A DNA stretch of 48,622 nucleotides from Shigella phage vB_Shig_1KOFFS. The first letter of the stretch is position 1, and the number at the start of each line of letters is the position of its first letter. The position numbers were made by a program, and so were the translations under genes. The stretch lies in sequence record PV615260; one strand, written 5' to 3'. Below the pieces are notes generated by a model that worked only from the letters and a program-made list of their open reading frames with translations, was not told the DNA's origin and ran no database searches. Positions 2,331-42,796 of the stretch are shown piece by piece.

Positions 2331-2908
2331 AAAATGTAATTATCCTCAACGGAGCGCCGGGCATCGGAAAGGACACTATCGCGGAAATCATCTCGCGGAA
2401 GTGGCAATACAAGAACCTTAGCTTCAAACAGCCGATGTTTGCCATTGCTCGTGCTGTGCTGGGATCGGCTGATTTTGCACGCTTTACTGCCCGATACCAC
2501 GACCGCAAGCACAAAGAAGTGAAATGCGATTTTTTGGGCGACCGTTCTCCGCGTGAATTCATGATTCACATTAGCGAAAATTTCGTCAAGCCGACCCTGG
2601 GCAAAAATCAGTTCGGCAAGTTGCTTTGCGATTCAGCGCTAACCTCGCCGTTTAACTGCATCGTCAGCGACGGCGGATTCGATGAGGAGGTGGAGCACGT
2701 CGCAGCGCATGAGGCGCTTAACGTGTTTGTCGTCCGCCTTCATCGTGACGGCATGACATTTGAGGGTGATAGCCGCAAGCATATTCGACGCCAGGATCTG
2801 ATTTGCGACACTTACCATGAACTCGATTTTGATATGACCACTGGCGAGCCGGAAGACGACGCGCAAAAAATCCTTGATATGGTGTCAGATGTTGCATTAA
2901 AATTATAA
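2327..2908 (+). CDS. P-loop kinase, dNMP kinase-like
   Basis: Walker A GAPGIGKDT at N-terminus; overall pattern resembles T4 gp1 dNMP kinase from memory; start overlaps upstream stop. Confidence 0.55.
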   Translation: MKNVIILNGAPGIGKDTIAEIISRKWQYKNLSFKQPMFAIARAVLGSADFARFTARYHDRKHKEVKCDFLGDRSPREFMIHISENFVKPTLGKNQFGKLLCDSALTSPFNCIVSDGGFDEEVEHVAAHEALNVFVVRLHRDGMTFEGDSRKHIRRQDLICDTYHELDFDMTTGEPEDDAQKILDMVSDVALKL

Positions 2909-2942
2909 AGTTAATGCCTTTATTATCACCACCTTAACGATT

Positions 2943-2970
2943 GGGAACCTTGATGGGTTCCCTTTTTTTT
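2943..2970 (+). terminator. Rho-independent terminator
   Basis: Stem GGGAACC / GGTTCCC with loop ttgat, followed by T8. Confidence 0.75.
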
Positions 2971-3034
2971 GTTCTTAATTTGGCCTAATGCATATATCAT
3001 CACCTTACCATTTAACTAACAGAGGTTGCATATC

Positions 3035-3250
3035 ATGCGAGAATTCATCAACGCGGCAACCAATAGCAGCGGTGGCGTTGCCCTCGCGGGATCTGCAACC
3101 GGGCAATTAATCATTGCTGCCATTGGCTTATTTTTCATGATTCTATTCGGCTCCTTCGGCGCGTGGTTGCGCTGGCGAGATTCAAAGGCGCTTCGTGAAG
3201 CGCTGGAAGTCGGGGATATCAAAACGGCGATGAAGATCAGGAGTAAATAA
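3035..3250 (+). CDS. Holin, probably pinholin
   Basis: 71-aa product with long hydrophobic N-terminal region and charged C-terminus, immediately upstream of a SAR endolysin; RBS AGAGG. Confidence 0.6.
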
Positions 3251-3251
3251 C

Positions 3252-3734
3252 ATGGGGATTAAAACGCGGGTTACATTCGCGGCGGCGGTGGCGATCGCGG
3301 TCGCGTTCCTCCCCGAAGTGGAGGACACGAAATACAATGTTTATATGGATATCGCTGGCGTCCCGACAGTATGCGAAGGCATCACAGGCCCGGACGTTAT
3401 CAAGGGGAAAACCTATACCCGGTCAGAGTGCGACGCGCTTTTAACCAAGCATATCCAGGTGGCGAAGCGAACCGTTGACAGCAAAATCAAAGTCGATGTT
3501 CCGGATACCTTCAGGGCGTCGATGTACAGCTTCACGTTCAACGTTGGCGGCGGCGCGTATTCTGGCAGCACCATGCTGAAATTAACGAACCAGGGCCGAT
3601 TGCGCGAGGCGTGCGAGCAGCTATATCGCTGGACGTACTACCGCAACCCGAAAACGGGAAAGATGGAGAAGTCGAAAGGCTTGTATAATCGCCGGGTTCA
3701 GGAATATCAACTATGCATTAAGGATCTGAAATGA
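3252..3734 (+). CDS. SAR endolysin (GH24 lysozyme)
   Basis: Hydrophobic N-terminal signal-anchor-release segment ([15 protein letters not shown]) followed by the canonical E-x8-D-x5-T catalytic triad ([16 protein letters not shown]). Confidence 0.8.
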
Positions 3735-4156
3735 GCACATTAAACTTTCAACGAGCGCTGGCCATCGGCTTTATCGTGTGGGCGGCTGCCGTTGTTTCCG
3801 GTTGCGCGTCAAGCGTCCCAATCCTTTCCGATCTGGTTGGTAGCAAGCCGGATATGACGGCGCAAGTAGGCGCGGAGAACGTGAAACAGGCGGTTGGCGT
3901 GACCAACAAAACGGACACGTCGAGCAGGCAGGAGACCACGTTTAAGGAGTCGGCTGTAGGTAAAGTTGACACGTCGAACAAGAAATCCGTAACGACCTCC
4001 AGCATTCACGCCAACCAGATCACGGCGGACAAGATCGAGATCCGTAATGATGAAAGCGGAAGCCTGGTTCCGTGGCTGATTGGTAGCATTGGGGTAGTAA
4101 TGCTGGCTATCGGGGTGTTCGGTATTTGGCGGGAACGAAAAAATAAAGGGGCGTAA
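3731..4156 (+). CDS. Unimolecular spanin (lipoprotein with C-terminal transmembrane domain)
   Basis: Signal peptide with lipobox VVSGC at N-terminus and hydrophobic helix [22 protein letters not shown] at C-terminus, as in T1 gp11. Confidence 0.75.
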
Positions 4157-4168
4157 TGCCCCTTTTTC
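4146..4168. terminator. Bidirectional rho-independent terminator
   Basis: Stem GGGGC/GCCCC with loop gtaat, flanked by an A-run upstream and a T-run downstream; ends the + lysis operon and the - accessory operon. Confidence 0.75.
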
Positions 4169-4690
4169 TATATGTACCGCTTGACGTGCAATAGCGCTAC
4201 TCCATCTTCATCGTTAAGACCATGTTCAACCGTGTTGGTTGCGGCCATTCCTTGATAGAGCAAGATGAGCGCGGCACGCAAGTAATTTTCTGGTGTGATC
4301 TGTTTCACGCAAACAAGCCTGTGAACTTCCGTTATCAGATCTTCCACCTGGTTTCCCGAAAAGCTGTTCATCACTGAGTTGGTCAAGGTGCATCATCTCC
4401 CACATATATCGGTTATTCATCCCTTCGAACGACCGGAAATCAAAGCCTATCTCCCTGTTATCCGGCCCCGTACACCACACAGCGCCGTTTTTTCCGTCAA
4501 GGTATCCATTCGTATAGCTTCGCGCTAAAAACTCCTTAGAGACCATTGAGGCGAACATACGTTGCGACACGTTGGCAGCTTTTGCCAGGCGAGGCGCTTC
4601 GCGGTGCATGTAAACGAACTTCGCAAAATCCTGCCGGGTGAACTCCCGGCGAGATTCGCAGAACTTGTAAATGTCAAGAATGAACATCAA
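4168..4690 (-). CDS. hypothetical protein with apparent frameshift
   Basis: ORF 4226-4690 and ORF 4168-4386 overlap in different frames; protein-like composition switches frame near the A4/T4 run at 4359-4362. Confidence 0.4.
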
Positions 4691-7205: not shown

Positions 7206-7280
7206 TTTGGTTTTCTCCGTTGCGTTTCTATGGGGTAATGCTACCCGACTTTCGCCGGGTAGTTTTAGCAATTCGTGCTA
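7206..7280 (-). promoter_or_regulatory. Conserved promoter-like cassette (copy on - strand)
   Basis: Reverse complement reads TAGCACGAATTGCTAAAAC, then hairpin tacccggcgaaagtcgggta, then CCCCATAGAAAC, RBS and ATG; the TAG is the stop of the upstream gene. Confidence 0.5.
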
Positions 7281-7970
7281 TTCTAGATAATTCGCCTGGA
7301 ACACGGCGCGGGCAAAACCTCGCGGAGTAATGGAGCGCAGCATTTTAGTCCTTTCTGACCTTCCGCCTAAAAACTTCCAGGCCCAAAAGAAATTCACGCC
7401 TTCCACTCCATCCGGCGGAGGGAGCCGTTTCGGTTCGACAAAACCGTTTCCGTGCCATATGCACGTTTTCTTCGTGTAATTGTCACAGTTGGGCATTTTT
7501 GGATGCCACACAGGTTCGTTTGGAGAAACATAGCCGCCGAAGTCGCGCGGGTGAAAATAGAAGTCAGGCTTTCGCCATAGTGACGACAATTTTCCAACCG
7601 GGTTTTCGACCATCCAGGGGCAACCATACTTATTGCCTAATTGCTCGACCATCTTCGCATCCCCTGCTGCGGATAATACGTCATTATCTTCCCTTACGTG
7701 CTTGATTCCGCTATGCGCTAACAGCGTGCATGACGGGAAGGCAAAAATGAAGTCGGGATCTGGAATGCCGAGAATCGATCGCTTCACGTCAAAATCCTTG
7801 TCGATCCAAATGTTAACATACTGGATATTGGGGTGAACCATTCTAATGCTGTATTCTCCGTGGTCGCCGGAGTCGGCATTGAAACAATACACCTTGCATC
7901 CCTTGATGGCCCACGGCAGGCCCATGATGCCGGAGCCGTCGAACATGCAGTAAATAACCTTGTCTTTCAT
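7278..7970 (-). CDS. Short C5-cytosine methyltransferase-like protein (230 aa)
   Basis: Motif I-like FDGSGIMG, motif IV-like FPSC and motif VI-like MVENPVG in canonical order; too short to hold a normal target recognition domain. Confidence 0.45.
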   Translation of the reverse strand: MKDKVIYCMFDGSGIMGLPWAIKGCKVYCFNADSGDHGEYSIRMVHPNIQYVNIWIDKDFDVKRSILGIPDPDFIFAFPSCTLLAHSGIKHVREDNDVLSAAGDAKMVEQLGNKYGCPWMVENPVGKLSSLWRKPDFYFHPRDFGGYVSPNEPVWHPKMPNCDNYTKKTCIWHGNGFVEPKRLPPPDGVEGVNFFWAWKFLGGRSERTKMLRSITPRGFARAVFQANYLE

Positions 7971-8193: not shown

Positions 8194-8265
8194 TTGTGTA
8201 GCTCCTTCGTTTGTTGGTGTGGGACAGTATGCCACTATCCAGCCATGTTGTTTTAGCAAAACGTG

Positions 8266-8643
8266 CTATGCCGGAACGCAGGTCGCGTAATCTTGGCTGA
8301 TGTAGATCGTGCGCTGAACGCGAGGTTCGAGATCTCCGAGTTCCTGGATGGTAACATCGTTGCTTCCTACCCGGCACGGAACCGATCCAAAGATAAACTC
8401 GCTAGTCTGCTTGTCGTTGATTTGCCATACATTACCGCCTTCCTTTTTGACAACCAGGAAAGGCGCACTGTCTGCACTGAACTCTTCCGGGCCACGACCG
8501 TAGTAATGCGTGATCGCAGCTTTGGCCGCAGCGCTGAAGGCATCGGTAACGTCATTGGTCGCCTTGTCGCGGATGGCCTTGATACGTTCTTCAGGCGATC
8601 CGATGATGTAGGAAAAGCTGTTCGAAATGGTAACTGTTCGCAT
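8266..8643 (-). CDS. hypothetical protein (125 aa)
   Basis: ORF with RBS GAGGT before ATG at 8643. Confidence 0.5.
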   Translation of the reverse strand: MRTVTISNSFSYIIGSPEERIKAIRDKATNDVTDAFSAAAKAAITHYYGRGPEEFSADSAPFLVVKKEGGNVWQINDKQTSEFIFGSVPCRVGSNDVTIQELGDLEPRVQRTIYISQDYATCVPA

Positions 8644-9427: not shown

Positions 9428-9785
9428 AGCTTTAGACCCTTTGGCTCAATTCGTTTCGTTGAAGTCATCATAGCAAAGTCGATCGGGTGGCTTTTGACAA
9501 AAAATGCTATTCCTGCGATTGCTGATTATTCCACCGATTCGGAATAGTGGAATAGATGGTGATTGCACCTGATTCCCTGGTGATTAGTTTTGACGAATCA
9601 TGATTGCTTTTGATTGTTTCATTTTGCGCAATGACTTGGTGGAGTGTTTCATGATTTGCAACGAATTGCATAAATGTATGCACCATGCACGCAATTTGCC
9701 GATCGAAGCTGGCAGAACTGGAGTTGTGTTTCACCAACATTTACGCCGTGTGGGAGTGTGGGGGAGGGATAATCTTACCTAAAAA

Positions 9786-9897
9786 TTGCGCAAAAAGCGA
9801 CCAATATAAGCCCATATATAGATAGTAAGTATATGATAAATAATAATATTATTATTATTACTCTCTATCTTTATATATGTTTGGTAAGATTTCTCAG
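9786..9897. repeat. Inverted repeat copy A (about 110 bp, 47-bp AT-rich core at 9818-9864)
   Basis: Reverse-complement match to 42604-42715; the core atagatagtaagtatatgataaataa(t/c)aatattattattattactct differs at one position. Confidence 0.85.
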
Positions 9898-42425: not shown

Positions 42426-42468
42426 TCTGCGGTTGGTCAAAAAATGAGCGAAATTTACGTAAGATTTA

Positions 42469-42484
42469 GTAAGATGCATCTTAC
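42469..42484. promoter_or_regulatory. Perfect 16-bp palindrome GTAAGATGCATCTTAC (operator-like)
   Basis: Exact self-complementary sequence read directly. Confidence 0.7.
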
Positions 42485-42603
42485 GTGGTTTTTTCCATAT
42501 ATTTCATAAAGTTAACGCAAATCGGTAAGATGGTAAGATCCCTATAGGTAAATATCCATGAAAAAACTGGCGCGAAATCCAGCGAAAAAAGACACGTACC
42601 ACG

Positions 42604-42715
42604 GAGAAATCTTACCAAGATAAGTATAGAGAGATAGAGTAATAATAATAATATTGTTATTTATCATATACTTACTATCTATGTATCGCGGTTAATTGGT
42701 TAAATTTTGCGCGAA
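42604..42715. repeat. Inverted repeat copy B (about 110 bp, 47-bp core at 42636-42682)
   Basis: Reverse complement of 9786-9897; core identical apart from one base. Confidence 0.85.
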
Positions 42716-42721
42716 ATTTAC

Positions 42722-42737
42722 GTAAGATTAATCTTAC
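42722..42737. promoter_or_regulatory. Perfect 16-bp palindrome GTAAGATTAATCTTAC (operator-like)
   Basis: Exact self-complementary sequence; shares the GTAAGAT half-site with 42469-42484. Confidence 0.7.
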
Positions 42738-42796
42738 TAAATCTTACCTAAAGTGGTTCGACCAGTTGCAAGCCACTGAATTTCAGGCATAAAAAA

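Follow-up and report, generated by a model that had tools for sequence, protein, structure and literature searches.

The lysis genes of phage T1 lie in the order 13-12-11, and the product of the last of them, gp11, is the prototype of the unimolecular spanin (u-spanin): it complements a lambda Rz/Rz1 defect, it has been shown experimentally to need the cysteine of its lipobox, and a version carrying AWAC in place of the lipobox LSGC still works (PMC6139136). In the same study, Kongari et al. assigned 58 u-spanins to 13 families, including those of PB1-like Pseudomonas phages, found a periplasmic cysteine in none of the 58, and counted KP36 and 1513, both weberviruses, among the T1 gp11 family, nearly all members of which (all but two) occur in cassettes with a pinholin and an endolysin of the signal-anchor-release (SAR) type (PMC6139136). 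In a re-annotation of 2024, the T1 and TLS holins were put forward as class II pinholins and gp12 as a SAR endolysin (PMC11447400). Here we describe the corresponding locus at positions 3035-4156 of the + strand in Shigella phage vB_Shig_1KOFFS (record PV615260), for which the whole stretch of 48,622 nucleotides (the window) was analysed. Judged from sequence, its three genes are orthologous to T1 genes 13-12-11 and make up the lysis cassette of a Klebsiella phage from the T1-like genus Webervirus (Drexlerviridae), with a mechanism assigned by homology, a reading to which we give a probability of about 0.9.

Three + strand open reading frames (ORFs) fill the interval exactly, from the A of the holin ATG (3035) to the final base of the spanin stop codon (4156). 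The genes, and the segments within them on which the functional reading depends, are the following.

3035-3250, + strand: holin of the T1 gp13 family, 71 amino acids (aa); match to PHROG 2877 'holin' with E 4e-39 over residues 1-71 of 71
3252-3734, + strand: endolysin of 160 aa, a muramidase of the GH24 T4-lysozyme type in the R21/RrrD subgroup; match to PF00959 with E 2e-30
3252-3320, + strand: endolysin aa 1-23, the N-terminal export/anchor segment, with K4, R6 and an uncharged stretch V7-P21, free of cysteine
3321-3368, + strand: codons of the catalytic triad, with E24 at 3321-3323, D33 at 3348-3350 and T39 at 3366-3368
3731-4156, + strand: unimolecular spanin of the T1 gp11 family, 141 aa; match to PHROG 1804 'Rz-like spanin' with E 1e-51; its ATG overlaps the endolysin stop codon
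3731-3805, + strand: lipoprotein signal peptide with lipobox VSGC (V22-S23-G24-C25), the codon of Cys25 at 3803-3805
4055-4129, + strand: C-terminal transmembrane helix of the spanin, aa 109-133; maximum of 2.3 in a 19-residue Kyte-Doolittle window, followed by the tail RERKNKGA

The genes are tightly packed, with a gap of 1 nt between the holin stop and the endolysin start and an overlap of 4 nt (ATGA) between endolysin and spanin. The order is identical to that of T1, and the protein sizes are close (71/160/141 aa in the window, 71/162/133 aa in T1). In direct alignments, the holin, endolysin and spanin share 52%, 61% and 40% identity with gp13, gp12 and gp11, the last over the full length. 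Both systems have in common the catalytic triad, a lipobox of the form xSGC, the C-terminal transmembrane domain (TMD) and a spanin motif starting at P40, and in T1 a terminator is likewise located after gene 11. Differences are confined to detail: the spanin signal peptide is longer in the webervirus, so that the lipobox is VSGC ending at Cys25 rather than LSGC ending at Cys22, and the uncharged run of the endolysin comprises 15 residues richer in Ala and Val, with the catalytic Glu at 24, where that of T1 comprises 17 with Glu at 27.

The conservation of these features was assessed on 80 IMG/VR loci that encode relatives of gp11, with genes re-derived, which yielded 56 distinct spanins and 28 distinct holins. 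T1-type holins were found in 46 loci, and there the order is always holin-endolysin-spanin. Because the lipobox and TMD of the spanin, the anchor ahead of the catalytic Glu and the uncharged stretch of the holin are all conserved among the homologues, the features of the cassette are not attributable to chance.

The endolysin assignment is based on a match to PHROG 7 'endolysin' (E 7e-47) and, in HMMER comparisons with solved structures, on matches to R21 (3hde, also 3hdf; E about 1e-34) and RrrD (4zpu; E 4e-34). The pattern E.{8}[DC].{5}T has one match in the protein, at E24/D33/T39, and all three residues are invariant in a 56-sequence alignment; as HMMER places residue 22 opposite residue 33 of R21, E24 falls opposite the Glu at position 35 of R21/RrrD. 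The N-terminus reads MGIKTR, followed by the 15 uncharged residues V7-P21, and we presume that residues 1-23 form a SAR domain. Cysteines occur only at positions 41, 60, 121 and 155, and none of the homologous endolysins has an N-terminal cysteine, which corresponds to the R21-type anchor and not to the disulfide-caged type of P1 Lyz. Wherever a co-occurring endolysin has a recognisable triad, a start containing K/R and 15-19 uncharged residues immediately precede the catalytic Glu. An AlphaFold2 (AF2) model built from the 56-sequence alignment has a mean confidence score (pLDDT) of 91 and contains an N-terminal helix at residues 10-23 (pLDDT about 90). Its best fold match is full-length R21 with the refolded SAR helix (3hde_A; TM score 0.84, root mean square deviation 2.6 A, 163 columns), the agreement with truncated R21 (3hdf) being poorer (0.63, 133 columns). 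From the homology to R21 and the overall shape, the endolysin is likely to be of the SAR type, for which Sec export, retention in the membrane and release dependent on the proton-motive force (PMF) are predicted.

Just after the hydrophobic run, residue 22 of the endolysin (codon 3315-3317) is polymorphic among weberviruses and shows a charge reversal, being Glu in the window and Lys in many relatives (loci L005-L040); the catalytic Glu24 and Asp25 are fixed. Such a reversal could modulate the retention or the release of the anchor.

The spanin begins with R8, a hydrophobic run at residues 9-24 and V-S-G-C25, a layout which passes both the pattern [LVI][ASTVI][GAS]C and a rule similar to PROSITE PS51257. 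Cys25 is the sole cysteine of the protein. The +2 residue is Ala26 (Ser, Ala or Val in the homologues apart from the Phe of the aberrant locus described below), and thus there is no signal for avoidance of the Lol pathway. At the other end, the AF2 model contains a helix at residues 113-139. A lipobox ([LV][ST][GS]C or LGGC) together with a C-terminal hydrophobic helix is kept in 55 of the 56 distinct spanins, down to 40% identity, and where homologues have extra cysteines these fall inside the C-terminal helix. In 11 representatives taken below 85% identity, G24, C25 and the motif P40..A44-Q-x-G-A-E-N-x-K-Q..G56 are invariant. The aberrant case is locus L044 (IMGVR_UViG_2974728900_000001), where the holin ORF has 99 aa and the spanin ORF 181 aa with a doubtful lipobox IFAC, and where the last hydrophobic run detected in the latter stops 147 residues short of the C-terminus; these gene calls probably reflect frameshifts or a different start.

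The holin adjoins the endolysin directly upstream and matches PHROG 2877 over its full length at about 71 aa; no Pfam or NCBIfam family scored above cut-off. Residues 4-45 form a single uncharged stretch of 42 residues, kept in 25 of the 28 distinct holins, which can be divided into a weakly hydrophobic segment rich in G/A/S/T (residues 4-23) and a strongly hydrophobic TMD (25-45), and which is followed by a basic tail (46-71) that is presumably cytoplasmic. This layout resembles that of the S21-type pinholin EssD. Segment 4-23 has a mean hydropathy of 0.59 and 70% G/A/S/T, the values for TMD1 of EssD being 0.55 and 57%, while segment 25-45 resembles TMD2 of EssD. Segment 4-23 is also the best conserved part of the holin family, with the pattern AAT..GG..L.G.ATGQ. 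On these grounds, and because the protein is paired with a presumed SAR endolysin, it is presumed to be a class II pinholin. A dual-start antiholin/holin motif was considered and rejected: the holin has a single Met start, and the only in-frame start upstream, TTG at 3026, abuts the Shine-Dalgarno (SD) sequence and would add MHI, without a basic residue.

The original prediction for this stretch had placed a complete three-gene lysis cassette at exactly these coordinates, and the PHROG families, the synteny with T1 and the GenBank annotation all agree with it. Its further statements that the endolysin carries an exact E-x8-D-x5-T triad and that the next gene combines a lipobox with a C-terminal transmembrane helix are borne out by the results given above, which also support its reading of this gene as a one-component spanin.

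A second system that bears on the interpretation is the S21(EssD)-R21(RrrD) pair of phage 21 and DLP12. The window endolysin is clearly homologous to R21/RrrD, shares the triad and has a cysteine-free anchor, and the holins are equally 71 aa long and have a similar two-segment hydropathy layout. However, the window holin is not homologous to S21/EssD and lacks the dual-start motif. The systems also differ in outer membrane disruption, which would depend on one spanin protein in the window and on an embedded Rz/Rz1 pair in phage 21/DLP12. No embedded or overlapping ORF resembling an outer membrane spanin component was found in the cassette, as the small + strand ORFs present there (25-40 aa; within the endolysin gene at 3337-3444, 3371-3478, 3475-3579 and 3611-3688) have no lipobox.

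The KP34-like (Drulisvirus) podophages present a different combination. Their u-spanin is homologous to that of the window (about 40-46% identity), and they have an N-terminally anchored GH24 endolysin with E-x8-D-x5-T (PMC4411677), which is just 23-29% identical to the window endolysin. Unlike the window, they have the order spanin-holin-endolysin, and their holin is unrelated: no match was obtained in 34 loci, and it has been described as class III, with one TMD (PMC4411677). The description of the one-component spanin as rare outside T1-like phages was therefore overstated, although partly right, as the same spanin family occurs in these podophages and in others. By tblastn, spanin relatives were found in 1145 of 50,697 phage records, among them Klebsiella, Pectobacterium and Acinetobacter phages of about 43-45 kb and one Pseudomonas phage; KP34-type Klebsiella phages and Pectobacterium CB5 have been described as podophages. 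About 20 records are named 'Campylobacter phage' (for example A13a, 47 kb) and contain T1-type spanins and DNA matching the window, which suggests that they are T1-like enterobacterial phages under a doubtful host name.

The DNA of the window itself is closely related to that of published phages. Each half of the window matches weberviruses with 92-98% identity over 88-100% of its length, and the window is therefore an essentially complete Webervirus genome, with 94-98% identity to many phages in GenBank. For the cassette, 349 phage records match, 344 of them from Klebsiella phages, and the best reach 97-98% DNA identity. Over positions 2900-4200, the published weberviruses Snook, Sparks, pK8, GML-KpCol1, KP36, 1513 and KP1801 are 97-98% identical to the window (97.3-97.6% for Snook, PQ337356, and Sparks, PQ358943, both from the Center for Phage Technology, and for pK8, OL702938); they have the three genes and the terminators in common with it and differ in the cassette by a few amino-acid substitutions only. 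The spanin reaches 98.6-99% identity with its best match, and for the holin IMG/VR contains one sequence at 100%. The third gene is annotated as u-spanin in many public records, KP1801 has been described with a U-spanin, an endolysin and a holin, and in the records of Snook, Sparks and pK8 the first gene is labelled class 2 pinholin or pinholin, the second SAR endolysin and the third u-spanin.

Signals for expression of the cassette and for its separation from the neighbouring genes were identified at both ends.

2943-2962, + strand: intrinsic terminator from the terminator scan, hairpin GGGAACC-TTGA-TGGGTTCCC followed by T8
3021-3025, + strand: SD sequence AGAGG of the holin gene, 9 nt upstream of the ATG at 3035
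4145-4165, both strands: bidirectional intrinsic terminator from the terminator scan, AAAGGGGC-GTAAT-GCCCCTTT

The first terminator, some 70 nt ahead of the holin start, closes the kinase operon upstream. Its stem is considered real because related phages preserve the pairing through compensatory changes (GGAAGCC/GGCTTCC in locus L022, GGGAGCC/GGCTCC in L027), and a terminator is annotated at the matching place upstream of the holin in the Snook record. Each of the three genes has its own SD sequence, that of the endolysin being AGGAG at 3239-3243. The AGAGG of the holin is invariant across 14 webervirus loci, and the Snook record has a ribosome binding site annotated at the equivalent position. 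The second terminator overlaps the spanin stop codon and sits between the spanin and a convergent gene on the - strand (4226-4690). The 70-nt leader between the first terminator and the holin ATG (2963-3034) is nearly invariant in weberviruses that are otherwise diverged.

Several observations weigh against the functional reading and have to be considered together with the alternatives. No sigma-70-like promoter was found between the terminator at 2943-2962 and the holin, so that transcription of the lysis genes may depend on read-through of the terminator or on a non-consensus or phage-dependent promoter. In the literature searched, we found no experiments on webervirus lysis proteins, including the SAR endolysins. 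For the spanin, the AF2 model has pLDDT below 50 and no secondary structure at residues 27-98, within the periplasmic domain that in u-spanins of the T1 gp11 type is predicted to consist mostly of beta strands, the alignment being shallow (12 sequences, at least 92% identical); the protein has no Pfam family, its sole NCBIfam match is far below cut-off, and some records call it 'lipoprotein' or 'hypothetical protein'. One might regard the third gene as encoding a lipoprotein or membrane protein that has no role in lysis and lies here by coincidence. We consider this extremely improbable in view of the full-length relationship to T1 gp11 with its complementation of RzRz1, the strength of the PHROG 1804 match, the conservation of both membrane anchors, and the genetic context, as the spanin gene adjoins the endolysin gene in 80 of 81 loci and is downstream of holin and endolysin in all 46 loci where three genes were found. 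For the SAR domain of the original prediction, basic residues (K4 and R6) and a hydrophobic segment are present at the N-terminus of the endolysin, and the SAR status itself is deduced from the homology to R21. However, the uncharged run (15 residues, mean hydropathy 2.33, 47% G/A/S/T) is shorter and more hydrophobic than that of the R21/RrrD system (for RrrD 23 residues, 1.60 and 65%; T1 gp12 has 17 residues, 1.68 and 53%). It follows MGIKTR in the manner of a Sec signal peptide and contains A-V-A at residues 16-18 followed by F, which satisfies the -3/-1 rule. Cleavage there would release a soluble periplasmic enzyme starting at about F19 that is restrained by other means until the holin fires. 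There is reportedly a precedent, attributed to Mehner-Breitfeld et al. 2021, in T4 RI, whose presumed SAR domain is said to have proved a cleaved signal peptide. The motif does not discriminate, because the N-terminal hydrophobic segment of RrrD, a close homologue of the SAR endolysin R21, also contains several of the AxA type. Moreover, no helix-breaking or polar c-region precedes AVA, cleavage would leave just 5 residues before the catalytic Glu24, and the runs of the T1-like homologues are 17-19 residues long, rich in G/A/S/T and with few or no good cleavage motifs. The match to R21 and the superposition of the model on the full-length protein, including the N-terminal helix, also speak against cleavage, but as 3hde was among the structures used to train AF2, the fit of the helix is not independent evidence. 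Activity of R21 is said to require the refolded SAR helix (a finding ascribed to Sun et al. 2009). On balance, we regard a cleaved signal peptide as improbable and favour the SAR endolysin.

The pinholin label is the weakest part of the original prediction: the protein belongs to a holin family and its hydropathy layout resembles that of S21, but the class is one that we infer from this layout and from the pairing with a presumed SAR endolysin, not from homology. There is no match to PF04971, the family of S21 pinholins (EssD matches it with E 2e-35), and pairwise BLASTP of the holin against the S21 pinholin gave E 0.086, with no detectable homology. Nor does a polar loop separate the two halves of the hydrophobic stretch, and in the original T1 record gp13 is a holin with a single TMD. 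The protein might accordingly have a single TMD (N-out, C-in), or form large non-specific holes, together with an exported endolysin as in phage P1. This is compatible with the situation in KP34-like phages, where a class III holin with one TMD accompanies a spanin of the same family and a presumed SAR endolysin (PMC4411677), and with the finding that u-spanins function with either type of holin-endolysin system (PMC6139136). What speaks for a pinholin is that the weak segment 4-23 fits TMD1 of EssD in hydropathy and composition, and that this very segment is the most conserved across the family; class II pinholin is also the annotation given by specialists. If TMD1 exits the membrane as in S21, the final topology would be single-TMD and N-out in any case, and the readings would then differ mainly in hole size. 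We therefore retain the pinholin as the presumed class and consider a holin of another kind unlikely, if less so than a cleaved endolysin.

Combining SAR endolysin, pinholin and u-spanin, lysis would proceed as follows. The endolysin would be exported by Sec and tethered to the periplasmic face of the inner membrane by its basic residues and hydrophobic segment, and would be inactive there because the catalytic Glu24 is just two residues from the bilayer. Meanwhile, the 71-aa holin would accumulate in the inner membrane, trigger at a set time and depolarise the membrane, with small rather than protein-sized holes suggested because the weak G/A/S/T-rich segment followed by a strong TMD resembles the pinholin of phage 21. 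Loss of the PMF would free the anchor; as in R21, it would refold onto the catalytic domain, after which the muramidase could degrade the murein. The spanin, a single polypeptide, would carry a lipid at Cys25 and, having Ala at +2, would be sorted to the outer membrane, with its C-terminal helix in the inner membrane and its 83-residue periplasmic domain, rich in Ser, Thr, Val and Lys, threading through the murein. Once the murein has gone, it would be free to disrupt the outer membrane, probably via fusion with the inner membrane.

Elsewhere in the window, the motif ATAGCAC-N3-TTGYTAAA occurs in 12 copies, where 0.01 would be expected from shuffled sequences. Ten are on the + strand (at 19, 10666, 11233, 11845, 12387, 13509, 14298, 15269, 44295 and 47323) and two on the - strand (7264-7281 and 8252-8269). 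It forms the 5' portion of an intergenic unit of 45-62 nt, in which AATAGCAC..TTGCTAAAAC is followed by a variable GC hairpin containing TATAGT or TATTAT and then by CATCGAAAC. Where orientation was checked (7264 and 8252 on the - strand, 10.6-15.3 kb on the + strand), the units point towards ORFs on the same strand; they probably represent phage promoters or 5' leaders of one family. The holin has no copy immediately before it, and the closest one upstream on the + strand is at 19-71. Also, a 106-nt inverted repeat with 82% complementarity is formed by 9770-9875 and 42625-42730, which are 33 kb apart, and the region of 42.4-42.75 kb contains local direct and inverted repeats (42433-42466, 42696-42729 and 42454-42752). 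Rfam and tRNA scans of the whole window were empty.

The cassette is a known one, annotated in hundreds of Webervirus genomes, and the prototype family of its u-spanin has been published; the present case illustrates that a T1-type lysis cassette is recognisable from sequence alone. The details of its mechanism matter, as weberviruses are in wide use as candidates for phage therapy against Klebsiella pneumoniae and the presumptive pinholin and SAR labels are copied from record to record. It is conceivable, if rather improbable, that the webervirus endolysin is a constitutively secreted enzyme with a cleaved signal, held back by something other than a membrane tether, or that the holin is a single-pass N-out protein whose conserved G/A/S/T-rich N-terminal half acts in the periplasm, or both. 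If this were true, the labels 'pinholin' and 'SAR endolysin' would be mechanistically wrong on hundreds of Klebsiella phage genomes.

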